Positions 14,926 through 42,374 of a stretch of 64,000 nucleotides of DNA are shown piece after piece (the first letter of the stretch is position 1; the number at the start of each line of letters is the position of its first letter). The notes under the pieces were generated by a model. It was given only the letters and a program-made list of their open reading frames with translations, was not told where the DNA came from and searched no databases. The stretch comes from an uncultured Candidatus Saccharibacteria bacterium (GTDB taxonomy: Bacteria > Patescibacteriota > WWE3 > UBA101185 > UBA10185), in assembly GCA_964396025.1 (NCBI GenBank), contig CAYNBT010000002.1:37030-101029 (forward strand), given 5' to 3'. The position numbers and the translations under genes were made by a program.

Positions 14926-16176
14926 TTAACTAGCCGGTGTGTATATTGTTTGCAGTGCCTTGGCTGCTTTTCTGCGGATTTCTATTTCTTTTCTGTACTG
15001 TATGACTTCGTCACTTTTAATGTTTCCCTGAGAAATTTCATTTAGAGCTTCTTGAGTATATTCGTTAACGGTTAGTGGATTTCTCATTTGAAGCCCCTTG
15101 GGTGATGTTTCATAAACATTACCTCGGTCAAAATACAAGTCGTATGCGGCTTCCAACAGCAATCCTCTGTGGGCCTCCTGTCTTTGTGCCTCTATCTCAT
15201 CTTTGTTGGGCCAACGAAGTCTTTTGTCGTCTTTGGTTCTTATCATCAATGCTTCCGCTTCAGGACTATCTTCTTTAAAGAATTGAGGACCGTGCGATTC
15301 TAGCCTATCAAGTGCTGCAAGAACCTGTTCCTCTGTAGAGGGAATCATTCTCTTTGATCCTGCCACTTGTACCCATTCTTGTCGCGCTTCCCTATACTTC
15401 ATCATTGCTTCTTCTTGCTCTGGGCTTCTGGGCGCAGCCTTTTCCCCAGTAAGGTTCTGCATATGTAGTACTGCTCTTTCGTAAACATTGGGTAATTCTC
15501 GTTCCTTTTCTACTATTCTTGCTGCAAGTTTTCTTCCACGTTCCATGAGTTCGGGTAGTTCCGCCTTGCGTTCGTGCCATATTTGAAGTTGCTTTTCGTC
15601 TATTCCACGTTCCTGCAATCTTTTCAAGAGTGCAAGGTTCACAGCCGGTTGCAACTTTGCATGATGTTGCGTTGGGCCGCATAGCATTTCCCAGCCAGCG
15701 TCTAGATCCGCAAGTCTTAGTTCTCTTCCACTGAGGTCATCAACGAGCTCAGTGATATATCTGTTATCTCTCATACTGCGTAAATTATTTAGCTCAGGGC
15801 CAATTGTGAGTTCTTTTAGCGAATCTGTAGAAAGGGCAAAATACACATTGTCAGGCATATTTGCTCTTGTTTCTATTTGTGGTTGTCCTAGAAAAGCCCC
15901 GGCGTAAGCAATAATTTCTGGGGTGTTAGCAGGTACAAAAACGTTTTCGTGTGTAATTTCTTTCCAGTTTTTAACTACGTCCGCATATCCTTCTTTAAGG
16001 CTGTTTAACTCTTCTGCCTTTTCCTTATTATTCTTGGGCCTGTTTGTCTCGTTTGTCGATTCTTCGTAACTGTCCGTTTTCTTGCCTTCTGCCCACTCTT
16101 TGGCATTACTCACACTACCTATCTTATATCCTTCAGTATGAATATCTACATGCCCAGCTTCTGCAAATGGTGCCAT
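14926..16176 (-). CDS. Hypothetical soluble protein of 416 aa, rich in charged residues, with locally higher GC.
   Basis: It is a long ORF with no TM segment or signal peptide. A long alternate-frame ORF (15392..15682) signals higher GC here than in neighbouring genes. I do not recognise a family. Confidence 0.45.
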   Translation of the reverse strand: MAPFAEAGHVDIHTEGYKIGSVSNAKEWAEGKKTDSYEESTNETNRPKNNKEKAEELNSLKEGYADVVKNWKEITHENVFVPANTPEIIAYAGAFLGQPQIETRANMPDNVYFALSTDSLKELTIGPELNNLRSMRDNRYITELVDDLSGRELRLADLDAGWEMLCGPTQHHAKLQPAVNLALLKRLQERGIDEKQLQIWHERKAELPELMERGRKLAARIVEKERELPNVYERAVLHMQNLTGEKAAPRSPEQEEAMMKYREARQEWVQVAGSKRMIPSTEEQVLAALDRLESHGPQFFKEDSPEAEALMIRTKDDKRLRWPNKDEIEAQRQEAHRGLLLEAAYDLYFDRGNVYETSPKGLQMRNPLTVNEYTQEALNEISQGNIKSDEVIQYRKEIEIRRKAAKALQTIYTPAS

Positions 16177-30565: not shown

Positions 30566-30829
30566 TTGGATATACAGGTTGTAATCGTAATCATACTTTC
30601 TCTTTTGACCATCAATTTGTTAGTGGTTGGTGTCTATGTGGTATTGGTGCTTAGAGATGTTCGTCAAACGGTCAAACGCGTTAACTCTGTTTTGGAAACT
30701 GTAGATACTTTCAGCTCTTCTCTTTCAAGTCCCATTTCTACCATCATTACTGTAACCAGTGCTTTATCTGAAGGCATTAAAGCGTTCAAAAACTTAAAAA
30801 ATTTGAGAGATGACAATAGCGATGTGTGA
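30566..30829 (+). CDS. DUF948-like small membrane protein.
   Basis: An N-terminal TM segment is followed by a helical region (VLVLRDVRQTVKRVNSVLETVDTF). It is paired with a YtxH-like gene, as in Firmicutes. Confidence 0.45.
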   Translation: MDIQVVIVIILSLLTINLLVVGVYVVLVLRDVRQTVKRVNSVLETVDTFSSSLSSPISTIITVTSALSEGIKAFKNLKNLRDDNSDV

Positions 30830-31106
30830 TAACAAACATCATTCGCCACATTCTGGTGGATTTACGACTGGCATGCTTTTTGGTGCAATACTTGGTATAG
30901 CAGCAGGGGTCTTATTGGCACCTGCAAAGGGTGAAGACACGCGTAAGAAACTTCAAAGTGCCAAAGAAGATTATGCTAAAAAAGCATCTGATACTGTTGA
31001 GCAAATACAGCAGCTGTTTGCTGAAGATCAGTTAGTTGAAGGTGCTGAGAAATCAGCCAAATCCTCCAAGAAAAGAAAGCTCTTTAAGGGAGCAAGAAAA
31101 TCCTAA
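30810..31106 (+). CDS. YtxH-like protein. The start is uncertain: 30810, 30822 or 30873.
   Basis: GMLFGAILGIAAGVLLAPAKGEDTRKKL matches the YtxH N-terminal motif. The C-terminal helix is Lys-rich. Confidence 0.5.
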   Translation: MTIAMCDNKHHSPHSGGFTTGMLFGAILGIAAGVLLAPAKGEDTRKKLQSAKEDYAKKASDTVEQIQQLFAEDQLVEGAEKSAKSSKKRKLFKGARKS

Positions 31107-31181: not shown

Positions 31182-31646
31182 ATGGATACAAATGCACAAA
31201 ATACATCTGATCCTAATATTCAGCCTAATTCGCCTGATTTAAGTTTTCAACCAAGCGCTTCGGTATCCGGCGAAAGTGGGGTTCATGTTGAGATCCCTGT
31301 TGTTGCACCTATCTCAGTTGAGCATACTCCCGAGCCTGTTGTAGAGCAGCCTGTAGAACAGACTGTAGAACAACCTGTAGAGTTGGCGCCAGAAGTTTAT
31401 AAAACTCCTGAAACTGTTGAAACTATATCACCCGCCCCAACGGTTGTTTTGAGTGAAGACCCTCTTGCCGAAAACGTTGTACCGCTGCCAAAAGCTATGC
31501 CTGTTGTTGAATCAATTGTAGACAAGAGAACTAATCATGAATCACTTGCAAAGGTAAAACCCAATGCCGACCCTGTAACTCTTGATGCAGATAAGAACGA
31601 AGAAGAGTTTATTGCTGGAGTGGAAATTGCCCATGAACATAAATAG
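31182..31646 (+). CDS. Acidic Pro/Val/Glu-rich repeat protein (VEQP/VEQT repeats), predicted to be disordered.
   Basis: Tandem repeats of about 12 nt, (c/a)ctgtagaaca(g/a), at about 31334-31383 encode PVVEQPVEQTVEQPVE. No TM segment is present. The 3' end overlaps the start of the downstream ATPase. Confidence 0.5.
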   Translation: MDTNAQNTSDPNIQPNSPDLSFQPSASVSGESGVHVEIPVVAPISVEHTPEPVVEQPVEQTVEQPVELAPEVYKTPETVETISPAPTVVLSEDPLAENVVPLPKAMPVVESIVDKRTNHESLAKVKPNADPVTLDADKNEEEFIAGVEIAHEHK

Positions 31647-34065
31647 CTCGATCAACACTATTATGTGGCTTTGGATAGCAGGTTTGGTTGCGCTGATGAT
31701 TGGGACTATTGTTTTCAAATATTACATTGGTAAAAAAAGAAGAGAGTATGAAGCTTCAAACCAATTTAAGCTCACATTCTTACAAATAAAACTTCCTCCT
31801 CAAAACGAGATCGAGATAAAAGCCGCCGAGCATATGTTTTCCAGTTTTATGGGGTTTAAGAAATCATTTTGGGATACACTCAAGACTGGGCAACATAGGA
31901 TTTCATTTGAAATTGTTTCAAAAGTCGAAGGTATTGCTTTCTATGTTGTGGTCCCCGATGATATTGCACTACATGTTGAAAAGCAGATAAACGCAGCTTA
32001 TCCAACTGCCGAAATTGATATTATCGATCCAGAAGAAATCTGGGATCGTGGTGCACATACAGCAATCATGGAGCTTGGACTTTCGGGTCCGGATTATTAT
32101 CCGATCAAGAACCATGAGGACATTGGTGGTGACGCACTTAGTGCTATCACCAGTTCCATGAGCAAGCTGGGTCCAGATGATGTGCTTACGGTGCAATTTC
32201 TTGTAAAGCCAGCTTCAGAGAATTGGCGTAAATCTGGTAAGAGCTATATTGGTAAAATCAAAAACCGTGCAAACGATCCGAACAAACAGGTCAATATTGA
32301 TACAGCTCATTTGGAGGGTGTAGAAAAGAAAATTTCAAAACCCGGTTTTGATACTGTGATAAGGGTAGTTTCAATCTCTAGTGATAAGTTTACCTCTGAT
32401 GCCCATCTCAGAGCCCTAGAGACAGCATTTGAACAGTTCACTGATGTAAATTACAACAGGTTTGTGGCCAAGCGTCTCAAATCATCAAAAAAATTTATTG
32501 ATGACTTTATTCACAGAAGAATGCGCGCTGTTGAATGGTTTATCCCGCTGTTTGATATCTCCTTGAAAAAGAATACTTCTGTCTTGAATATCTCTGAAAT
32601 GGCCACTGTGTTTCATTTTCCAAACAAAAACATCCAAACCCCAAATATTATCTGGCTTGGTGCTAGAAAGGCACCTGCACCTGCGAATGTACCAAAAGAG
32701 GGGATATTGCTTGGGCAGAATCAATACCGTGGTACTGTCACACCGGTACACATGAAAGACGGGGATCGCCGTAGGCACATGTATATTATAGGGCAAACCG
32801 GTACAGGAAAATCAGAATTTTTGAAAGCTCTGGTCCTTCAGGACATCAAAGCGGGTAAAGGTGTAGCGCTTATTGACCCTCACGGTAGTGATATAGATGA
32901 TATTTTGCAAAGAATTCCTGAGGAACGTAAAGACGATGTGATCTTGTTTGATGTTTCCGATACACAGCGGCCGTTAGGTCTAAACATACTTGAATGGCAA
33001 ACTGAGGAACAAAAGAATATGTTGATCAACGCTTTTATTGGTTTGTTGTACAAGCTATATGACCCAAATCGCCAAGGAATTATTGGACCAAAGCTTGAAC
33101 GTGCTGTTAGAAACATTATGCTTACAGCGATGGTAGATAGAGAGGCTACATTGGTTGATGTATTACGTTTATTGATTGATAACGAGTATTCCAAAAAATT
33201 CTTGCCTTTGGTAAAAGATCCTTTGGTAAAACGTTATTGGACTGATGAGGTTGCCAAAACCAGCGACTTCCACAAGAGCGAAACCATGGGCTACTTTGTT
33301 TCAAAGTTTGATAGGTTTATCACCGAAAGCACCATGCGCAATATTCTGGGTCAGCCAAAATCGGCATTGGACTTCTCCAAAATTATGGCAGAGAAAAAGA
33401 TCTTCCTTGCCGATTTATCCAAAGGGAAAATTGGTGAAGAAAATGCCACGTTCTTGGGTTTGATCATTGTTCCAAGGATTTTGATGGCTGCTCTGCAGCG
33501 TGCTACGTTACTAGGTCAGGGAATTCAATTCCCTGATTTTTACCTGTATGTAGATGAGTTCCAAAACTTTGCTACGCCCGATTTTGCCACAATCTTATCT
33601 GAAGCTAGAAAATATAAACTTAACTTGATAGTAGCCAACCAGTTTATTGCGCAACTTTCTGATGAGATCAAAACAGCAATTTTTGGTAACGTGGGAACTA
33701 TGGCTTCGTTCCGAATTGGTATAGATGATTCAGAATATTTGGCCACGCAGTTTTCGCCGATTTTTGAGGCCAATGACTTGATCAACAATCCTATGGGAAG
33801 TGCTTGTGTAAGATTGTTGATAGATGGGCACCCATCAATTCCATTTTCAATGCAAGTGCCTTGGGATAAAGAGCGTAATGACCTTTCTCTTATATACGGT
33901 GAGTTTTCAAAAAATCAAAACATTGGACAAGAAATACGTCAGCGTTCTAGAATGACTTATGGTCGCCCAGTTGCCGAAGTGGAAGAGTTTATAAACAAGC
34001 GTGCCGGTTTTGACGAGCCGCCCATACAAGCTCCTCCTCAACTGAAAAGGGAGATCAGGTTTTAA
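31633..34065 (+). CDS. Membrane-anchored FtsK/HerA-superfamily ATPase resembling a type IV coupling protein (VirD4/TraG/TcpA-like). A VirB4-like ATPase is the alternative.
   Basis: An N-terminal TM segment (IMWLWIAGLVALMIGTIVF) is followed by a domain of about 330 aa and then Walker A HMYIIGQTGTGKS...ALIDPHG. The Walker B and C-terminal motif FYLYVDEFQNFATPDF...ARKYKLNLIVANQFIAQL...FGNVGTMASFRIGIDDSEYLA is typical of T4CP and VirB4 proteins. The ATG at 31633 lies inside the tail of the upstream ORF. Confidence 0.55.
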   Translation: MNINSSINTIMWLWIAGLVALMIGTIVFKYYIGKKRREYEASNQFKLTFLQIKLPPQNEIEIKAAEHMFSSFMGFKKSFWDTLKTGQHRISFEIVSKVEGIAFYVVVPDDIALHVEKQINAAYPTAEIDIIDPEEIWDRGAHTAIMELGLSGPDYYPIKNHEDIGGDALSAITSSMSKLGPDDVLTVQFLVKPASENWRKSGKSYIGKIKNRANDPNKQVNIDTAHLEGVEKKISKPGFDTVIRVVSISSDKFTSDAHLRALETAFEQFTDVNYNRFVAKRLKSSKKFIDDFIHRRMRAVEWFIPLFDISLKKNTSVLNISEMATVFHFPNKNIQTPNIIWLGARKAPAPANVPKEGILLGQNQYRGTVTPVHMKDGDRRRHMYIIGQTGTGKSEFLKALVLQDIKAGKGVALIDPHGSDIDDILQRIPEERKDDVILFDVSDTQRPLGLNILEWQTEEQKNMLINAFIGLLYKLYDPNRQGIIGPKLERAVRNIMLTAMVDREATLVDVLRLLIDNEYSKKFLPLVKDPLVKRYWTDEVAKTSDFHKSETMGYFVSKFDRFITESTMRNILGQPKSALDFSKIMAEKKIFLADLSKGKIGEENATFLGLIIVPRILMAALQRATLLGQGIQFPDFYLYVDEFQNFATPDFATILSEARKYKLNLIVANQFIAQLSDEIKTAIFGNVGTMASFRIGIDDSEYLATQFSPIFEANDLINNPMGSACVRLLIDGHPSIPFSMQVPWDKERNDLSLIYGEFSKNQNIGQEIRQRSRMTYGRPVAEVEEFINKRAGFDEPPIQAPPQLKREIRF

Positions 34066-34088
34066 TATGAAAGTTTTTAACTAATACT

Positions 34089-37000
34089 ATGACTGCCCAA
34101 AATCGCCGAGATACACAACCTGATGAGCTAGCCACCCTGCGCGATGTACTTGAGACTACTGGCTCAGCCGAAACTAAGGCACGTGAAGCTGAAATTCTTA
34201 AAAAAAGCAATCCGGAAGACTTAGATATCACGGATTTGGTAAAGCGCACAGATGTAAGGCTCAAGACAGCTGCAGAAGAACTTAAGAAACTCGAAGGGGT
34301 CAATGCAGCAGAGTTTATTGCGGCATGCACAGATTTTAGCGATCACATTAAAAGTTTTAGACCACAAGAAAATGATGCAAACGACGTGGTATTGCTGGCA
34401 TTAGAAAATGCGGGTAGAGCTGAGGTAGTGTTTGACGAGGCATACAAAGGCACCATAAGAGAGATAGTTATGTTCGTCAACGAGTATGCTCCTCATGTTA
34501 GTGAACAAAATCCAAAGATAGGCTTTGCTTTACAAATGTATATGGAGGCAATGTCTGCCAATAATTCTTTTGCTGATTTAAACAACGAGCAGGAATTTAC
34601 GAATCAGTATGTAAGGCCGGCTTCAGAAAATAATCTCAGACTAAGTAAAGAAGAAGCGTCAAAACTTTTTCATGCTTTACACGATATTTCTCAAGTAAAT
34701 CCGATGCCTTTTAAAGATTTTGCCAATGAGAACAATTATGCACCGGGCAATACAGTAGAGCAGGATAAAGAAATTGCTGCAACAAAAGAGCACGAACGCT
34801 ATCAAAAATGGCTAAACTTGGTTGAGACCTTTGATTCATTTTTGCCTCAAGATCCCCTGCAAAACAAATGGGAAAAATACAATGAAATCCCCGGACCCGT
34901 GGAAAACCCATGGCTAAATTGGCAAGAAAAACATGCTGCCGATGGTGGTTTGATTGTGGACGTGAGCAAAGGTGCAGGGCCACTTGTAGAGGTTGAAAAG
35001 AGAAGCGGCTTTTTTGGAACTAAAAAAGGCTATGAAGCTGCAAAACCTGTTCAAAACGAAATCTTCCTCATGGAAAAACAGATAGCTGTGGTTGGGCAAG
35101 ACGGCAGAACTTACTTAAGAAAAGTTCAGTGCTCAAACGAAGTTTATTACAAAGTAGATTTAAAATACGACAAAGTCGGTGGCGTTGAGGCAGCCTACTA
35201 CAAACAAACGGGATTCTGCCATACAGGAATAAAGTCAGAAATAATTGGAGAATATGAACGAATGCAACAGTTACGTGCAGCTGTAGCGGTCGAGGGAGGT
35301 AATAAATACCAAGTTCCTCAACTGATTCAAGAAGAAGGGGATCCAGCGCCCAAAATGCAGGTAATCCTCATGGACAAGGAAACCTATCTAAAAGCGTTGA
35401 GTAATGTCACACTTGCCGTGAAATCATACGAGGGCCCTCCACCTCCAGAAGGTAACAATCCAAAAGCCATAGTTGATGCTTACTACGAGAAAAAGGCCCA
35501 GGCGGGCAGGAAGAAGTTCAGAGAGCAATTTGTAAACGAAATCGCTGGTGACGATTTGATGCCAGAGCGTGCCCATGTACAAGTCCGATCTGCTGTGGAG
35601 GCATACTTGGCCAGGTTAGAAACCGCAGAACCAAAAAATGAGACATTGATAAACTCAATAAAGGAATCCCAAGAGAATGTAAATGCCCATTACGAAGATA
35701 TTGGAAGAAACTACGGCAAACTAAACAGATACAACGATAAAGCCACACAGCGTGTCTTGGAGCGACGTGCTTTGGGACTTTCTACACTTACCGATCAGGA
35801 CGTTTATGATCACAGCCCTGCTTATATGGCCGAACTAAATGCTGCAAAGCAGGAAATTGCCAGCGAGTATTTTTACAAAAAGATAGTTTTGAATGATGTG
35901 GCTATGGAAGTGAAAAGGCTTGAAACTGTAGAACAGAGCAATCCGGAAGTACTCAATGATTATTTGGCTAATCTGGATCATAGAATTCAGTTGCGTGTTG
36001 AGGAAATGAAGCAAAATGCAGAGATCGATAAAACTGCTTCTTCTGCTGAGGCAGCGAGCAAATACATCACTGCAGATATGGATGCCATGTATGAGGCGAT
36101 TGCACGCCCTACGCATGATTTATCCGTAGAATTAAAAAGAGGCGAGAAGTTAGTAGCTAGAGCAAAGGACAAACATAAGATGGCTGTGGGAGATATGTAT
36201 GCCTATGCCACAATGTCTGGACTCTTGCCTCAGGATGTTTGGAATGCCGTGGAGTTAAATACTGCTCTTACTATTATAAGCGATCAGACAAATTGGGAAG
36301 TTGCATATCTTCCGGAACTAGTACTGCCTCCAACATCGCCTGATAGCTTGGATCCTGTATTTTTGACAAAGTTTGTGAATATTTACAATAGGAAACCTAC
36401 GCAGCAAGAGATGAATGCGTTTGCATACAATACAAACGTTAACGCTATTGACTCAAAAATTGCTAGAGCAAACGCAAGAGTTATGGAGGTTGAGCGTGTC
36501 CTAGATTATTTTGGTTCTTTGGAAAATGCCTCAGATGATATGTCCCAACAAGATGTTTATAACGCGATGGTCTCAGGTGCTACTCTTGATTTTGAGACCC
36601 GTTCTGTGGTTAAAGAAGCTGTTAAATTAAGATATGCAGACGACGAAGTACGTCAGAGTATTGCGGAGTCCTATCTATCGGCTGCCAAAATTGTTGAGGC
36701 TACGTCAGTACTCGTGGCTGCTAGAAACAAACGTGCTGTTGAAGGTAATTTCATACCTTCCGACTATATGGATGTTAATGGAAGTATTACTTCGGAAGGA
36801 GCTAGGATTTTTGCGGAAATGGAAGCTCTAAAAAAAGAACTATCCCCTGAGAGCGCTGCAAAGGTGATTGCTAATCTTGATAGCAACCGTAGGAAGAATG
36901 AACAAGGTCTTGAAGCTGTTGCGGTCGAAATTACCCCAGCTAGACTAGACACCTTACAAACCAGCTTAGAAGGAAACTTGGAGGCTGCACGAGCTCTAGC

Positions 37001-37454
37001 TGCTGAAAGTAAGTACGGTGCTCAGGTGCCTGAGGATGCATTTGACGCCCAAGCTCAATTTATAAAAGAGACCATTGATAATTTGCGCAATCAGCCTGCT
37101 TCTTCCGCACAGTCGGCGCAAGCTATTGTTGCATATAGAGCATTACACCGCATTAGTGGTGCACAGCAGGCCTTTCTAGATAGTTATGCCGATGCCACTG
37201 TAAATAAAGACGTTATGCGTGAGACAGCTTTGGCTGTGAATTATGTTACATCCGCTGCAGAAACCGCAGCAACATTCAATGCTGCGGTTCGCTTACCAGA
37301 CGACCTTATTCAGCTGGGACAGGAGCGGGGCATAGATGCTTCGTTTATTCTCCTCGCGAATGACACCTTTAGCTTGTCAACAGAAGTTCCGTACAATAGT
37401 GATGTAGTTATGGCTTATGCTGAGCAATTGCAGAATAATGCAGCCGCAGTATAG
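34089..37454 (+). CDS. Large hydrophilic hypothetical protein of 1121 aa, Ala/Glu-rich, with no TM segment or signal peptide.
   Basis: It is a long ORF with higher GC than its surroundings, shown by several long alternate-frame ORFs on the opposite strand. No motifs I recognise are present. It starts 23 nt after the ATPase gene. Confidence 0.6.
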   Translation: MTAQNRRDTQPDELATLRDVLETTGSAETKAREAEILKKSNPEDLDITDLVKRTDVRLKTAAEELKKLEGVNAAEFIAACTDFSDHIKSFRPQENDANDVVLLALENAGRAEVVFDEAYKGTIREIVMFVNEYAPHVSEQNPKIGFALQMYMEAMSANNSFADLNNEQEFTNQYVRPASENNLRLSKEEASKLFHALHDISQVNPMPFKDFANENNYAPGNTVEQDKEIAATKEHERYQKWLNLVETFDSFLPQDPLQNKWEKYNEIPGPVENPWLNWQEKHAADGGLIVDVSKGAGPLVEVEKRSGFFGTKKGYEAAKPVQNEIFLMEKQIAVVGQDGRTYLRKVQCSNEVYYKVDLKYDKVGGVEAAYYKQTGFCHTGIKSEIIGEYERMQQLRAAVAVEGGNKYQVPQLIQEEGDPAPKMQVILMDKETYLKALSNVTLAVKSYEGPPPPEGNNPKAIVDAYYEKKAQAGRKKFREQFVNEIAGDDLMPERAHVQVRSAVEAYLARLETAEPKNETLINSIKESQENVNAHYEDIGRNYGKLNRYNDKATQRVLERRALGLSTLTDQDVYDHSPAYMAELNAAKQEIASEYFYKKIVLNDVAMEVKRLETVEQSNPEVLNDYLANLDHRIQLRVEEMKQNAEIDKTASSAEAASKYITADMDAMYEAIARPTHDLSVELKRGEKLVARAKDKHKMAVGDMYAYATMSGLLPQDVWNAVELNTALTIISDQTNWEVAYLPELVLPPTSPDSLDPVFLTKFVNIYNRKPTQQEMNAFAYNTNVNAIDSKIARANARVMEVERVLDYFGSLENASDDMSQQDVYNAMVSGATLDFETRSVVKEAVKLRYADDEVRQSIAESYLSAAKIVEATSVLVAARNKRAVEGNFIPSDYMDVNGSITSEGARIFAEMEALKKELSPESAAKVIANLDSNRRKNEQGLEAVAVEITPARLDTLQTSLEGNLEAARALAAESKYGAQVPEDAFDAQAQFIKETIDNLRNQPASSAQSAQAIVAYRALHRISGAQQAFLDSYADATVNKDVMRETALAVNYVTSAAETAATFNAAVRLPDDLIQLGQERGIDASFILLANDTFSLSTEVPYNSDVVMAYAEQLQNNAAAV

Positions 37455-37464
37455 TGGTTAATTT

Positions 37465-39282
37465 TCACCTAAACACCAAATAAACCCTCTGAAGATCCTT
37501 ACCCAAAGATTTTTGCTTTTCTATCTTAACTTGCCCTAATTCTGACAAATTTTGAACGTGAGGTCCTCCACAGAATTCCTTGCTAAAAGCGTGTTCAAGG
37601 TTTTTTCCAATATAGTAGACTTTTACTTCGTCTCCGTACTTTTCGCCAAAAAAGTGCATAGCACCGGTTTTTTCCGCTTCGTCTTTACTCATGATTTCAA
37701 AGCCCACGTTGTGTTGTTCGGATATTTTTTCATTAATTAAGTTTTCCACGCGCAAAACTTCTTCGTCAGTGAGTTTCTCGTGATGAGAAAAGTCGAATCT
37801 AGCTCTTTCTCCTGTGATATTGCTGCCCATCTGTTTAACATGTTTGCCTAGAATTTCGCGTAATGCCCAATGCAACAAGTGTGTTGCTGTGTGGAATTTC
37901 ACTACTTGTTCGCTGTGATCTGCAAGACCACCTTTGAATTTTTGTTCTGCTCCTTGCCTTGATTGAGCTTGGTGAAGCTTAAACAGATTCTCAAATGATT
38001 TGTTAAGTTCTTTCAAATCTACAGCGATCTTTTTATCTCTTACATCTTCCAAAAACATTTCCATTGGATACCCTACGGATTGGAACAGATCAAAGGCTGC
38101 TTTGGAAAGTTCTTCCACACTCTCAGTTCCTTCGCGTAAAAACTTTTCTGCTTCTTTAGCTCCAAGGTTAAGCACTTTTCTGAACTTTTCTTCTTCTTGC
38201 GCAAATGTCTCTACAATATCCTTTTCTTTATGTTCAAGTTCCGGGTAGATCCATGAGAAATTTTTCACCACAGTGCTAACAAGGTTTACAGATACACCGC
38301 TTTCGATTCCTAGCTTTTTTCCTGTGCGAACCATTCTTCGCAGTATTCGGCGCAATACGTAGCCTTGATCTTTATTTGATGGTTTCACGCTGTCCATTGC
38401 CAAAAACGTAGCGGCTCGAATATGATCTGCCAGTATTCTCATGCATTTTGTTGATTCTTCGTTTTCGTGATATCTGAGATTACTTAGTTCTTGAATCTTT
38501 TCTATGATCGGCCAAAAATTATCTGTTTCAAAAATATCTCTTTTGTCTTGCACCGCAAGTGCGATTCGTTCCAAACCTCCACCAAAGTCTACATTGCGTT
38601 GGCTTAACTCTTCCCAGCTGGTTTCAGTTTTTTTGTATTGCATAAAAACGCTGTTACCAATTTCGAGATAATCTTTATCGTAAACTGCAGGATCTTTGCC
38701 CTCGCCTGATCCCTCCCCTAGATAATAAAAAACTTCGCTGTCTGGACCGCCAAGCTCACCAATGGCTTCGCCACGTTTCCACCAGTTGTCCTTTTTTCCG
38801 TAAGCATAGATTCTGGTTCCAACTTCAGCTTTGATTCCGTATTTAGCAAAAATATTTTTTAGAAGTTCGATGGATTCGGTGTCCTTTGGGGCATCTGAGT
38901 CGCCTTCAAAGACGGTGGCAAAAATGCGTTGAGGATCCAGCCCAAGCTTTTCTATAAAAAATTCATAGATCCAAGGTAATTGTTCTTTTTTAAAGTAGTC
39001 CCCTAAACTCCAGTTGCCAATCATATGAAAGGCGACTGTATGGTTGTAGTCCCCAACTTCTTCCAAATCATCAAATCGTAAGCAGCGTTGCACGTTTACA
39101 ATGCGGCTGCCAAGCGGATGTTTTTCGCCGGATAAATATGGGACCAAAGGGAACATTCCTGAGTTTACAAATAACAGGGTAGGGTCGTTTTCTGGAACTA
39201 GAGACACATTAGGTACGAGTTTGTGCCCTTTTGACTTCATAAAATCTAGATAGGTGTTTAGTATTTCTTTTGAACTTTTCAT
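37465..39282 (-). CDS. alaS: Alanine--tRNA ligase, truncated form with catalytic and editing domains but no C-Ala domain.
   Basis: The N-terminal LLFVNSGMFPL...RIVNVQRCLRFDDLEEVGDYNHTVAFHMIGNWSLGDYFK is the class II AlaRS core. The HTATHLLHWAL...FCGGPHV editing motifs are present. Confidence 0.85.
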   Translation of the reverse strand: MKSSKEILNTYLDFMKSKGHKLVPNVSLVPENDPTLLFVNSGMFPLVPYLSGEKHPLGSRIVNVQRCLRFDDLEEVGDYNHTVAFHMIGNWSLGDYFKKEQLPWIYEFFIEKLGLDPQRIFATVFEGDSDAPKDTESIELLKNIFAKYGIKAEVGTRIYAYGKKDNWWKRGEAIGELGGPDSEVFYYLGEGSGEGKDPAVYDKDYLEIGNSVFMQYKKTETSWEELSQRNVDFGGGLERIALAVQDKRDIFETDNFWPIIEKIQELSNLRYHENEESTKCMRILADHIRAATFLAMDSVKPSNKDQGYVLRRILRRMVRTGKKLGIESGVSVNLVSTVVKNFSWIYPELEHKEKDIVETFAQEEEKFRKVLNLGAKEAEKFLREGTESVEELSKAAFDLFQSVGYPMEMFLEDVRDKKIAVDLKELNKSFENLFKLHQAQSRQGAEQKFKGGLADHSEQVVKFHTATHLLHWALREILGKHVKQMGSNITGERARFDFSHHEKLTDEEVLRVENLINEKISEQHNVGFEIMSKDEAEKTGAMHFFGEKYGDEVKVYYIGKNLEHAFSKEFCGGPHVQNLSELGQVKIEKQKSLGKDLQRVYLVFR

Positions 39283-39611: not shown

Positions 39612-40829
39612 ATGTTTAAACTGCCATCTCTATTTAAGCAAGCAGATCCCAATCTTTTTTTAGCGGTTGATATAAGTTCATCTGCCATAAAATGTTACGC
39701 TCTAGAGGTTTTTGAAAACGAGTCAGGCCCATTTGTTGAAGTGATCAGTGTCTACAAAAAAAAGCTGGAACCTGGAATAGTTCGTGGCGGAGTTCTTATC
39801 GATATAGATGTGATCTCACAGCTTTTGGCAGAGTCTGTAACAGACATTACCCAAGATATTCAAAGGCCTGTGCGGCAAGCTATATTCGGCTTGAGTGGGG
39901 AGCTTTGCATTTCAAACGTTACAACAGTAAAAGCTACAAGGCATTCTCAAGACCCTGTTTCTCAGAAAGAAACAGAAGAAATTTACCAAAAGATGTTGGA
40001 AACCTCCCAAGAAAGTGCACAGGCTCAACTTTCCTATCTTACTGGAAACACAGATATGGATTTGGATTTGATTACGTCCTCCTTTGTTTATTCCAAACTT
40101 GACGGTAAAAGAGTAATAAAAACATTAGGTATGGATGGTGATGTTTTGGAAACAGCTCTTTTTACTTGTTTTACTCCAACATTTAATGTGAAGGCCCTTC
40201 AGCAAATTGCCAAAAAGGCTAGGTTAAAAATCTTATCCATAGGTTCGCTTATGTATACGCTAACAGAATCCCTTAAACATAAATTTGGCAGGCATTTTGA
40301 TGGTGTGCTTTTGGATATGGGTAGTGATTTAACTGATGTGGGGGTAGTATTTGGTGGTGGGTTGGTTTCTCAGAAAACCTTGCCTTTGGGTGGATATCAT
40401 TTTTCTCAAGAAATAAGCAGGAAAACTGGTTTAACTTATTTTGGGGCAGAGGAAAAGAAAAAACAGTACTCTTATTCAAATCTTACGGAAACAGAACTTG
40501 TGCCTGTGCAGGAAGGTATTGAGAAAGTTTCTGCACTTTGGGTGAGCGGACTAGAACTATTGTTTGGTGAATTTGTGGGTGTTAAAACATTTGCGTCGTC
40601 AGTTTATATCGCGGGTGGTGGGGCTGAATTGCCCGAAATGATTGATGTTTTATCCAGTCAGCCTTGGACCAAATCAATCCCATTTAAGTCGCCTCCTGAG
40701 TTTGCAAAACTTAGTATCGCTGACCTCGTTTTTGTGAAAGACACCACAGGTTTGTGCGATTCTCTAGAGGATATCATGCCTTTATCATTAAGCGTGATTT
40801 TTTTAAAAATGCAAGGAATGATTGAATAA
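39612..40829 (+). CDS. Actin-like ATPase of the FtsA/PilM family.
   Basis: The N-terminal LFLAVDISSSAIKCYALEV...GIVRGGVLIDIDVISQLLAES fits the FtsA/PilM pattern (GxDIGT.k..v; G.I.d). The protein is 405 aa. Confidence 0.5.
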   Translation: MFKLPSLFKQADPNLFLAVDISSSAIKCYALEVFENESGPFVEVISVYKKKLEPGIVRGGVLIDIDVISQLLAESVTDITQDIQRPVRQAIFGLSGELCISNVTTVKATRHSQDPVSQKETEEIYQKMLETSQESAQAQLSYLTGNTDMDLDLITSSFVYSKLDGKRVIKTLGMDGDVLETALFTCFTPTFNVKALQQIAKKARLKILSIGSLMYTLTESLKHKFGRHFDGVLLDMGSDLTDVGVVFGGGLVSQKTLPLGGYHFSQEISRKTGLTYFGAEEKKKQYSYSNLTETELVPVQEGIEKVSALWVSGLELLFGEFVGVKTFASSVYIAGGGAELPEMIDVLSSQPWTKSIPFKSPPEFAKLSIADLVFVKDTTGLCDSLEDIMPLSLSVIFLKMQGMIE

Positions 40830-42374
40830 ATGAAAAAACTTATCTTAGAAATTCATGATGATATTTTAAAAATTCTTGAGAAATTGGAAAATTCTCAAGA
40901 TACGGTTGTGGAGCTGGAAATACCCGAAGGCTCTGTTTTGTTTGATAACATCGTGAATCTAAAGGTTTTGCAAAAGGAGGCAGATAATTTGGGTAAATCG
41001 CTAAATTTCAAAACTTTAGATGAAAACGGCGCCGCGTTGATTGAAAGTATTTTATCTGGTACTCGCCCGCAAGACGAATTCGTATCTAGAGAGTTTACGC
41101 CTTCGCGCCATAGTATCACTCCCAAAGAGAGTGTTATCTCCAGACTAATTGGATCTCTCCCCAGCTTGCCTAAATTTAGCATGTTTTCTGGTGGTGGAAA
41201 TTTTAGTAAAGTGCTGCTAATTTTTGTAGTTTTGAGTTTGCTAGGTGGAATGGGTTATTTGCTGGTAACGCAGGTCCCGCAAGCATTTGTAAAGATCTCT
41301 GTTGATTCGCAGCCCTTGATTAAAAGTATTTCTATAAAAGTAGTTTTGGACAAGGCTACTTCTGCTAAAGAAAGAATATTGAATGGGAGGAAGGTAGAAG
41401 CTGTAGTGGCAGACACTGCGTCCATGGAGCCAACAGGAATCAAAATTGTGGGAGAAACTGCGTCAGGCAAGATCAAAATTTACAATTATACTGATCAAGA
41501 GAAAGAGTTTGGTAAAGGTACCGAAGTTTATTTTAATGAAGACGATTACGATTTAACGTATAAAACCAAAAGTTCTGTGGTTGTTCCTGCTGAAACCTTG
41601 AAAGAACCCGGTGTACCAGGCAGTCCCACAGTGCCCGGTGAGGCAACAGTGGATGTAGAAGCCACAGAGATTGGTGAAGATTCTAACATAGATAAGGGTA
41701 GTACGCTGACCTTTGACGATTACAAAAAATCTGAGGTAGTTGCGGCGGCAGACGCCGATTTTTCCGGCGGAGAAAGCTCTGAAGTAAAAGTAGTTGCAGA
41801 GGCAGACTTACTGAAACTTGAGGAAGAACTTCAAAAGAAACTTACTGAAAACAGCGAAAGCATCCTAAAAGCTAAGCAAGGCGTAAAGTACAAACTAATT
41901 GATGGATCAACCGCCACCTCCATTGTTTCCAAAAAGTTTTCGGCAGAACTCGACGACGAAACCGATACGTTAAATCTGGATATGGAAGTTAAAGCTTTTG
42001 GTTTGGCCTATTCTACAGATGAGTTGAATAAACTGCTAGACACTTTGGTTGATAGTTTCATTCCAGACGGATTTAAACTTTCTGCCAAAAACAAATCAAT
42101 CAGCGTTGAGATTTTAGGTAATTCAGATGATACTGTTCTATCTTCTTCTGAGGCTGATCTACAGGTAACTCTTAAGGCATATGTAGTGCCAGGTATAAAT
42201 GAACAAGAATTAAAAACTAAACTTAGAGGAAAAAAGTTGAATGATGCAAGAGATTTATTAAACAACATACAGAACATAAACAATTTTGAATTAAGTATTT
42301 CCCCAAATATCCCATTCTTTGGCAGAATGCCCGTATCCGAGGAGAATATAAGCCTTGAGATCAGCTTAAATTAA
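40830..42374 (+). CDS. Hypothetical bitopic membrane protein (cytoplasmic N-terminal domain of about 125 aa, one TM segment, extracytoplasmic domain of about 370 aa).
   Basis: The central TM segment is VLLIFVVLSLLGGMGYLLV. It is translationally adjacent to the FtsA/PilM-like gene, with a 1-nt gap. Confidence 0.4.
   Translation: MKKLILEIHDDILKILEKLENSQDTVVELEIPEGSVLFDNIVNLKVLQKEADNLGKSLNFKTLDENGAALIESILSGTRPQDEFVSREFTPSRHSITPKESVISRLIGSLPSLPKFSMFSGGGNFSKVLLIFVVLSLLGGMGYLLVTQVPQAFVKISVDSQPLIKSISIKVVLDKATSAKERILNGRKVEAVVADTASMEPTGIKIVGETASGKIKIYNYTDQEKEFGKGTEVYFNEDDYDLTYKTKSSVVVPAETLKEPGVPGSPTVPGEATVDVEATEIGEDSNIDKGSTLTFDDYKKSEVVAAADADFSGGESSEVKVVAEADLLKLEEELQKKLTENSESILKAKQGVKYKLIDGSTATSIVSKKFSAELDDETDTLNLDMEVKAFGLAYSTDELNKLLDTLVDSFIPDGFKLSAKNKSISVEILGNSDDTVLSSSEADLQVTLKAYVVPGINEQELKTKLRGKKLNDARDLLNNIQNINNFELSISPNIPFFGRMPVSEENISLEISLN

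Follow-up and report, generated by a model that had tools for sequence, protein, structure and literature searches.

A WWE3 chromosomal locus encoding a DUF8128-DUF87 ATPase with a VirB4-like N-terminal domain, a coupling-protein-like motor and a conserved small partner

Patescibacteria depend on other cells. A VirB4 protein was identified in 2,417 of 3,035 Patescibacteria genomes, and the corresponding gene clusters contain VirB3, VirB6, VirB8 and pilins and mostly lack a relaxase (Quinonero-Coronel et al. 2025, PMC12102498). The same study counted 5,713 homologues of the VirD4-like type IV coupling proteins (T4CPs) in 2,918 genomes, only 148 of which are located near virB4, and considered an exaptation of these homologues possible. 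The commonest relaxase class is MOB_C (58 of 109), and 39 relaxases are encoded close to t4cp (PMC12102498). In Southlakia, an essential cluster for a type IV secretion system (T4SS) contains no recognisable coupling protein (Wang et al. 2023, PMC10633639). The T4SS is essential in the one species that has been examined by genetics, yet the T4SS clusters of Patescibacteria contain no recognised coupling protein, and the “orphan” T4CP-like genes, which number in the thousands, are uncharacterised. Here, we describe a locus of three genes (positions 31182-37454) in a 64-kb stretch of contig CAYNBT010000002.1, below called the window, from a Patescibacteria genome of the candidate division WWE3. 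Its central gene encodes an ATPase that almost certainly belongs to these scattered homologues of T4CPs, since this is how members of its family are named by NCBI. The “orphan coupling ATPase” reported in a preliminary description of this DNA is therefore a phenomenon that is already known, although it has no assigned function. Coordinates are positions within the window on the forward strand of the contig, and L-numbers are labels of related loci that were compared with it.

Like the T4CPs VirD4, TrwB, TraD and DotL, the window ATPase combines an N-terminal membrane anchor with a motor that contains the Walker A and B motifs and an all-alpha insertion, followed by a TraG-D_C region. In the numbering of the 810-aa product, the hydrophobic helix covers aa 5-33, the Walker A motif GQTGTGKS aa 387-394 and the Walker B motif FYLYVDEF aa 636-643, while the C-terminal motifs QFIAQL and FGNVGTM are placed at aa 670-675 and 684-690. 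Sequence and hydropathy thus agree with the preliminary description, which had listed the single helix, the Walker A motif and the two C-terminal motifs. The AlphaFold2 model (mean pLDDT 88.3) shows a long transmembrane (TM) helix, an alpha/beta N-domain at aa ~45-330 and a RecA-type core with an all-alpha insertion of ~130 residues (aa 458-586). The N-domain had been described as an unrecognised domain of about 330 aa. An extra N-domain of roughly 300 aa is indeed present, but it corresponds to the Pfam family DUF8128, and its modelled fold resembles that of a VirB4 N-terminal domain. With the order TM helix, DUF8128, DUF87 and TraG-D_C, the protein shows both the layout of VirB4, in which a VirB4-like N-terminal domain precedes a C-terminal ATPase domain, and that of the T4CPs, in which a membrane anchor precedes a nucleotide-binding domain that is interrupted by an all-alpha domain. 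We describe it as a VirB4 architecture with a T4CP-like motor. A search of the literature found no paper that mentions DUF8128 by name.

The ATPase belongs to a large family with the order PF26449 (DUF8128) and PF01935 (DUF87), with or without PF12696 (TraG-D_C), and a length of ~800 aa. It has more than 5,700 homologues in the database searched, of which the best 120 are ~800 aa long and 57-70% identical to it. According to the precomputed domain annotations of the identical database protein P0001 and these 120 listed homologues, PF26449 is present in all, PF01935 usually and PF12696 often; the assignment of PF26449 is taken from this annotation, as the model is absent from the Pfam copy used to scan the window. 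Matching stretches were found at least ~600 times in GTDB genomes and at least ~600 times in metagenomes. By the lineage names in the record titles, the GTDB matches include WWE3 (~60% identity), Levy-, Gottesman-, Woese-, Davies-, Roizman-, Curtiss-, Collier- and Shapirobacteria (about 41-48%), and Dojka-, Doudna- and Berkelbacteria (37-42%). The N-domain alone matched 1,743 clusters at the 50% identity level and is always N-terminal in the listed full-length proteins, which are about 700-1,700 aa long. The closest relative found is in L002, with an ATPase that is 97% identical. The ratio of nonsynonymous to synonymous substitution rates (dN/dS) amounts to 0.011 in this comparison, which is as low as the value for RNase J, although ratios against L002 are approximate because dS is saturated. 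This value indicates that the ATPase is under very strong purifying selection. A scan of metagenome contigs yielded no close WWE3 relatives (best 54% identity).

In three distant lineages with ATPases that are 38-40% identical (L077 3587-6163, L150 3785-6358 and L151 10430-13000), a second large open reading frame (ORF) of ~857 aa directly follows the ATPase, at a distance of -4 to +15 nt. The ORF of L077 is a tandem paralog of the ATPase and not a relative of the 1121-aa protein downstream of the window ATPase, because it clusters with the ATPase family. The corresponding ORFs in L150 and L151 are probably also tandem paralogs, judging by their similar length and position alone.

The preliminary description had placed the ATPase in the VirD4/VirB4 lineage rather than with FtsK, and the model scores bear this out. 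Two Pfam families pass their cut-offs, DUF87 (29.4 bits, E-value 1e-6, cut-off 23.2) and TraG-D_C (24.9 bits, 2e-5, cut-off 22), and the best NCBIfam matches are to SXT_TraD (1e-10) and the VirD4-like CD1115 family (9e-10, aa 374-712). In the PDB sequences, DotL (8e-7) and TrwB (6e-5), both T4CPs, are matched with E-values of 0.01 or lower, and no other ATPase of the secretion or translocase type is; VirB4 is found at 0.065, while HerA and FtsK are absent from the matches. Unlike VirB4 proteins, such as TrwK of R388 and the VirB4 of Thermoanaerobacter (C-domain), the window ATPase carries no signature of that family: the scores are 13.7 versus a cut-off of 27.5 for AAA_10 (PF12846) and 17.7 versus 643 for TIGR00929, and there is no match to CagE_TrbE_VirB (PF03135). 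It also differs from FtsK/SpoIIIE, as the FtsK_SpoIIIE model does not reach its cut-off and a gamma (KOPS-binding) domain is missing. A genuine FtsK, complete with gamma domain, is encoded 2 kb upstream. In contrast to HerA, the ATPase has no HAS-barrel N-domain and no NurA, Sir2, DUF4297 or similar partner nearby, and its PADLOC matches to HerA are weak and confined to the Walker A region. Formally, the best Pfam E-value is to DUF87 (“HerA central”), and the preliminary description had named a best score to HerA or FtsK as a result that would speak against a coupling-type ATPase. However, the NCBIfam matches, the PDB sequences and the context of plasmid relatives favour a T4CP, and there is no HAS-barrel. 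A defence system was considered and rejected, since PADLOC detected similarity to ATPase cores only (mad8 7.7e-14, weak HerA and DndH) and nothing in the flanking proteins.

Members of the same family are also present on mobile elements. A tblastn search identified homologues in 56 phage records, including phage G (gp156), SPO1 (gp27.4), CampHawk and CP-51, and in 220 plasmid records from Bacillus, Streptomyces, Staphylococcus, haloarchaea and Sulfolobus. The similarity covers both the N-domain and the motor, at only 21-26% identity. In a BLASTP search, the DUF87 proteins from plasmids of Bacillus and from SPO1-like phages were matched at 6e-40 over aa 66-742, and a profile of the WWE3 family aligns end to end with “DUF87” proteins of Bacillus plasmids (E-values 7e-63 and 2e-57), compared with an E-value of 0.3 for the AAA_10 VirB4 of the same plasmid. 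On a 27.6-kb plasmid of B. licheniformis, the homologue is at the head of the conjugation cluster and is followed by a Replic_Relax (PF13814) protein, while a separate AAA_10 VirB4 is encoded further on. PF13814 represents the MOB_C relaxase class (PMC5357655). The homologue thus adjoins a nickase and sits where a coupling protein would. On a 65-kb plasmid of B. subtilis, the homologue is located upstream of conjugal-transfer genes and genes of the TcpD and TcpE families. In SPO1, gp27.4 is followed by gp27.3, which is annotated as “replication initiation by nicking” and matches Replic_Relax (2.9e-12). The pairing with a nickase in the B. licheniformis plasmid and SPO1 is the best evidence that the ATPase family handles DNA, and as a pattern of gene order it supports a coupling role. 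The Bacillus and SPO1 genes belong to mobile elements and have a MOB_C/Replic_Relax nickase gene as their neighbour, whereas those of Patescibacteria are part of the core chromosome and have a gene for a small, probably disordered protein instead.

The two-gene module of DUF8128/DUF87 ATPase and Replic_Relax nickase spans 2803-8313 in L171 (phage SPO1) and 1-3560 in L169 (Bacillus plasmid), and in SPO1-like phages a partition protein is encoded nearby.

The small protein encoded upstream of the ATPase is its constant partner in WWE3. Each of the ten WWE3 loci has an upstream ORF of 97-302 aa that, in the called genes, shares 1-20 nt with the start of the ATPase gene, so that the translational overlap noted in the preliminary description is a conserved feature. 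These proteins are acidic, proline-rich and variable in length, and all that they have in common is a C-terminal module of ~43 aa with the pattern (I/V)VD.R..HE, ~15 residues, and ADeeEe.FI.gV..AH. A profile hidden Markov model (HMM) of the module, built from nine WWE3 orthologs, recovered the held-out L006 ORF directly upstream of the L006 ATPase (E-value 1.3e-11) and had no match outside WWE3. The small protein has no match in Pfam, NCBIfam, PADLOC or PHROG, and its dN/dS against L002 is 0.18. The PVEQ repeat after which the protein had been named is present, but it is absent from the L002 ortholog and represents a strain-specific expansion in a disordered region; the conserved part is the C-terminal module. 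More widely, about three quarters of 78 GTDB loci have a small same-strand ORF directly upstream of the ATPase, and those in Microgenomates contain a different C-terminal motif, sWrWLAEWCirrlK. On this comparative evidence, the small protein and the ATPase are the constant unit of the locus in WWE3, and the small protein may be an adaptor or regulator.

With moderate confidence, we interpret the ATPase as a motor of the coupling-protein type that is anchored in the membrane and forms a ring. It would dock via its VirB4-like N-domain and probably handle DNA, and the small protein would bind to it via its C-terminal module. As a coupling-type translocase of the VirB4/VirD4 lineage, the membrane-anchored protein would probably be hexameric. 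By analogy with the VirB4 N-domain, which docks on VirB3/VirB8 in R388, the N-domain would dock the ATPase at the membrane, where ATP hydrolysis by the ring would drive the handover or threading of a substrate that is most likely DNA. The small protein probably contacts the ATPase through its conserved module and could serve as an adaptor, as a regulator or as the tail of a substrate. The 1121-aa protein would be a fast-evolving accessory of part of WWE3, a candidate cargo or cytoplasmic partner that is placed outside the conserved core. The VirB4-like N-domain, the relatives paired with a MOB_C nickase and the constant small partner lead to the hypotheses that the ATPase docks through its N-domain, that its substrate is DNA and that an adaptor binds via its C-terminal module. 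It is mainly these three features that make the locus moderately interesting, and the architecture of the ATPase bears on the divergence of VirB4 and VirD4. The recent insertion and the orphan giant effector considered in the preliminary description are not supported, as described below.

Several observations weigh against a coupling-type ATPase. Neither the window nor the flanks of ~160 related Patescibacteria loci encode a relaxase, VirB4, VirB6 or VirB8, and the neighbours are housekeeping genes; the association with relaxase or T4SS genes that characterises T4CPs is seen in the distant homologues of the Bacillus plasmid and SPO1. The preliminary description had already placed the gene away from T4SS genes, and no VirB4, VirB6, relaxase or integrase was detected among the 26 window proteins scanned, a set that comprised every one of the largest ORFs. 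Canonical T4CPs have two TM helices and lack a VirB4-like N-domain, whereas the window ATPase has one helix and an extra N-domain of ~290 aa. The T4CP equivalog models are all far below their cut-offs (SXT_TraD 40.5 versus 366, CD1115 37.9 versus 250). Among the Pfam models that the preliminary description had proposed for the ATPase, TraG-D_C passes, but TrwB_AAD_bind (PF10412) is just under its cut-off (20.1 versus 20.5), and T4SS-DNA_transf (PF02534), like CagE_TrbE_VirB, gives no match. Furthermore, the fold scores do not separate VirB4, VirD4 and HerA. Finally, the T4CP homologue of Southlakia epibionticum is reported to be non-essential while its T4SS is essential (PMC12102498), which would be a poor fit with an obligatory role in the T4SS if this homologue and the window ATPase belong to the same family.

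The core chromosomal position would also suit a housekeeping translocase of DNA or protein that has lost any link to conjugation, is unrelated to the T4SS and acts in chromosome segregation, division, envelope biogenesis or DNA uptake. In WWE3, the ATPase is flanked by FtsK, a RodZ-like protein and a YtxH protein on one side and by an FtsA/PilM-like protein on the other. A XerC/D-like recombinase and an FtsB-like gene are located within a few genes in ~36 of ~80 GTDB loci, and genes for a penicillin-binding protein and a SpoIID-like protein are found nearby. The extreme constraint on the ATPase, the small fraction of T4CP homologues near virB4 and the exaptation raised by the authors of that survey point in the same direction. 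However, gene neighbourhood is weak evidence in tiny streamlined genomes, a complete FtsK with gamma domain is already present, and outside Patescibacteria, only modules for conjugation or nicking provide an informative context. We regard a housekeeping role as unlikely. The VirB4-like layout could instead indicate a second, divergent VirB4, which would in effect be a VirB3-VirB4-like fusion and assemble or energise the T4SS or pilus of Patescibacteria rather than receive its substrates. This seems quite unlikely, since the ATPase lacks the sequence signal of the VirB4 family, no VirB3, VirB6 or VirB8 is encoded next to it, NCBI annotates members of the family as T4CP-type, and the family profile misses a genuine AAA_10 VirB4, with which a homologue coexists on Bacillus plasmids.

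The large acidic protein directly downstream of the ATPase could be the cargo of a self-contained export or handling system, with the ATPase as the motor and the small protein acting as a chaperone or carrying the signal, in the manner of EssC/EccC, whose substrates are LXG or Esx proteins. We consider such a system very unlikely: the large protein is absent from four of the ten WWE3 loci although the ATPase is still strongly conserved, it has no signal, TM segment or recognisable toxin or adhesin domain, it is not detectably homologous to the large proteins at the corresponding loci in Microgenomates, and no membrane channel is co-encoded. A broader and more speculative idea, to which we give little credence, is that the DUF8128 ATPases represent a phylum-wide, chromosomally fixed hybrid of VirB4 (N-domain) and T4CP (motor) that has become detached from conjugation and forms its own minimal translocation module, to which a disordered adaptor of small size and, for several lineages, a co-encoded large hypervariable cargo would belong. 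If this were true, episymbiotic bacteria would possess in this module an export or handling system that has not been described before.

The 1121-aa protein is acidic (net charge -51) and rich in alanine and glutamate. It has no signal sequence, no known domain and no family match in the libraries searched, and hydropathy agrees with the preliminary description in that there is no TM segment. A search with the single sequence against a database of 5.8 billion proteins retrieved only the protein itself and one relative that is 85% identical. A search of the same database with a profile of six sequences gave the same two proteins, and four of its own input members, which are from public assemblies, were not recovered. 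As the word-filtered search missed its own input, the absence of matches is uninformative for a family of large proteins with such low identity. However, six of the ten WWE3 loci encode a protein of 737-1227 aa without Pfam match in the same slot, with positional counterparts of the window protein in L001, L002/L003, L004, L165 and L168. It is missing from L005, L007, L166 and L167. Pairwise BLAST matches among the counterparts are marginal but collinear. A profile of the proteins in L004, L165 and L168 scored 34 bits against the window protein, 45 bits against that in L002 and 30 bits against that in L001, compared with at most 8 bits in the controls (600 shuffles, reversed sequences and ~480 other ORFs). 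The 1121-aa protein is therefore not an orphan, as had been proposed, but a member of a hyperdivergent family that is specific to part of WWE3. The profile identified no members outside the six WWE3 loci among all ORFs of ~170 loci. The C-terminal ~450 aa that follow the core (aa about 82-649) are variable or absent in the relatives. A dN/dS of 0.085 against L002 indicates purifying selection. Since it is missing from four loci, the protein is an accessory, and the three genes form a unit only in a subclade; the conservation of the trio that the preliminary description had proposed to check thus extends to the small protein and the ATPase in all ten loci, but to the large protein in six of them. 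The possibility that the protein is a MOB_C relaxase was rejected (hhalign probability 0.07%).

In Microgenomates of the Gottesman and Levy types, a large fast-evolving protein without Pfam match (375-700 aa) is encoded 1-61 nt upstream of the small protein and the ATPase, which is another gene order than in the WWE3 trio. The members of a first group (L008 7477-9465, L009 7592-9490, L016 7377-9479, L017 76-1779 and L037 7336-9345) share only the C-terminal ~60 aa, which consist of QWLLLAIIWYLAMIREQG, a basic stretch and then GVIFA..S. A second group comprises L011 8334-9461, L013 411-1556 and L015 8147-9538.

The window contains the housekeeping DNA of an ultra-small bacterium of the WWE3 type, in agreement with the origin of the closest relatives of the ATPase. 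It encodes MurJ, LepA, DnaK, NusA, IF-2, PNPase, RNase J, FtsK, AlaS, an FtsA/PilM-like protein, MiaB, MiaA, MltG/YceG, an M23/PcsB-like peptidase and a Mur ligase. Ten distinct WWE3 loci, some of which stop short of one or both ends, share the gene order RNase J, FtsK, RodZ-like HTH_25, small TM protein, YtxH, small protein and ATPase, and downstream of the locus FtsA/PilM-like, a ~514-aa protein and RuvX. This synteny holds down to an ATPase identity of ~60% (relatives at about 60-65%). The position of alaS is more flexible, as in WWE3 relatives it follows the locus in either orientation or is located elsewhere. The GC content of the 1121-aa gene is indeed higher, as noted in the preliminary description (0.430 versus 0.402), but the difference is trivial: the excess is in codon position 1 and is due to the alanine and glutamate content, while the GC content at third codon positions (GC3) is native (0.368, versus 0.371 for alaS and 0.388 for the ATPase gene). 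A recent insertion of foreign DNA, which had been suggested from the short distance to the alaS stop, was rejected, since it is contradicted by both the conserved synteny and the native GC3. The shared gene order in the ten WWE3 loci instead indicates that the locus is an old, conserved and vertically inherited part of the chromosome.

The ORF calls reproduced the three ORFs of the preliminary description together with their overlap, motifs and spacings (Table 1). From its first TTG, the ORF of the ATPase would span 31582-34065 (827 aa), but the start is probably at TTG 31627 (812 aa) or ATG 31633 (810 aa). The product from TTG 31627 is identical to P0001, and a GGAG is located 7 nt upstream of this codon. 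Both of the favoured starts overlap the stop of the small gene by 14-20 nt. The ATPase is separated from the third gene by 23 nt, a gap that contains no obvious Shine-Dalgarno sequence, and the stop of the third gene is 10 nt from that of alaS. Boundaries marked by a tRNA, a non-coding RNA or a mobile element were considered and rejected: neither tRNAs nor Rfam families were detected in the window, and scans for promoters and terminators were at or near background.

Table 1. Features of the ATPase locus, with positions given in the window.
Feature	Position	Strand	Evidence
Small acidic, proline-rich, probably disordered protein, 154 aa, net charge -20	31182..31646	+	ORF, composition
(P)VEQ-coding tandem repeat, 12 nt x 3.5	31340..31381	+	TRF
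Conserved C-terminal module of the small protein, IVDKRTNHE...ADKNEEEFIAGVEIAHEHK	31515..31643	+	Alignment of 9 WWE3 orthologs, HMM
DUF8128-DUF87-TraG-D_C ATPase	31627..34065	+	ORF, Pfam/NCBIfam, homologues, AlphaFold2 model
Single N-terminal TM helix of the ATPase	31645..31731	+	Hydropathy; one long helix in the model, aa 3-42
ATPase N-domain, Pfam DUF8128, predicted alpha/beta fold like the VirB4 N-terminal domain	31765..32622	+	
ATPase P-loop motor domain, VirB4/VirD4/HerA branch	32695..33867	+	
Parts of the motor domain: Walker A; Walker B; all-alpha insertion	32791-32814; 33538-33561; 33004-33390	+	
Acidic Ala/Glu-rich protein, 1121 aa, directly downstream of the ATPase	34089..37454	+	ORF; hyperdivergent family of a WWE3 subclade
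Conserved core of the large-protein family, aa 82-649	34332..36035	+	Extent of hmmsearch alignment
alaS, convergent	37465-39282	-	ORF

The genes surrounding the locus also show recurrent arrangements. In the window, an 87-aa TM protein and a 98-aa protein with a YtxH domain overlap by 20 nt (30566-31106, plus strand). This pair is always located upstream of the small protein and the ATPase in WWE3, and the four genes may be part of one operon. On the other side (39612-42374, plus strand), a gene for an FtsA/PilM-like actin-fold protein is followed without a gap by that for a 514-aa protein without Pfam match, and the pair, followed by RuvX, is kept in the WWE3 loci that extend that far. In Microgenomates, the XerC/D-like tyrosine recombinase (~287 aa) and the FtsB-like coiled-coil protein recur within one to three genes of the ATPase, for example at 12644-13507 in L041 and 4311-4676 in L035, and NrdJ, NrdR and a cobalamin adenosyltransferase recur upstream of the ATPase. 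Elsewhere in the window, a 416-aa ORF without Pfam match is located between the DnaK region and NusA (14926-16176, minus strand). Alanyl-tRNA synthetases of well-studied bacteria are generally longer than 605 aa. The AlaS protein encoded in the window is only 605 aa long and consists of the tRNA-synt_2c and tRNA_SAD domains, and that of the relative L165 is 466 aa long and contains the catalytic domain only.

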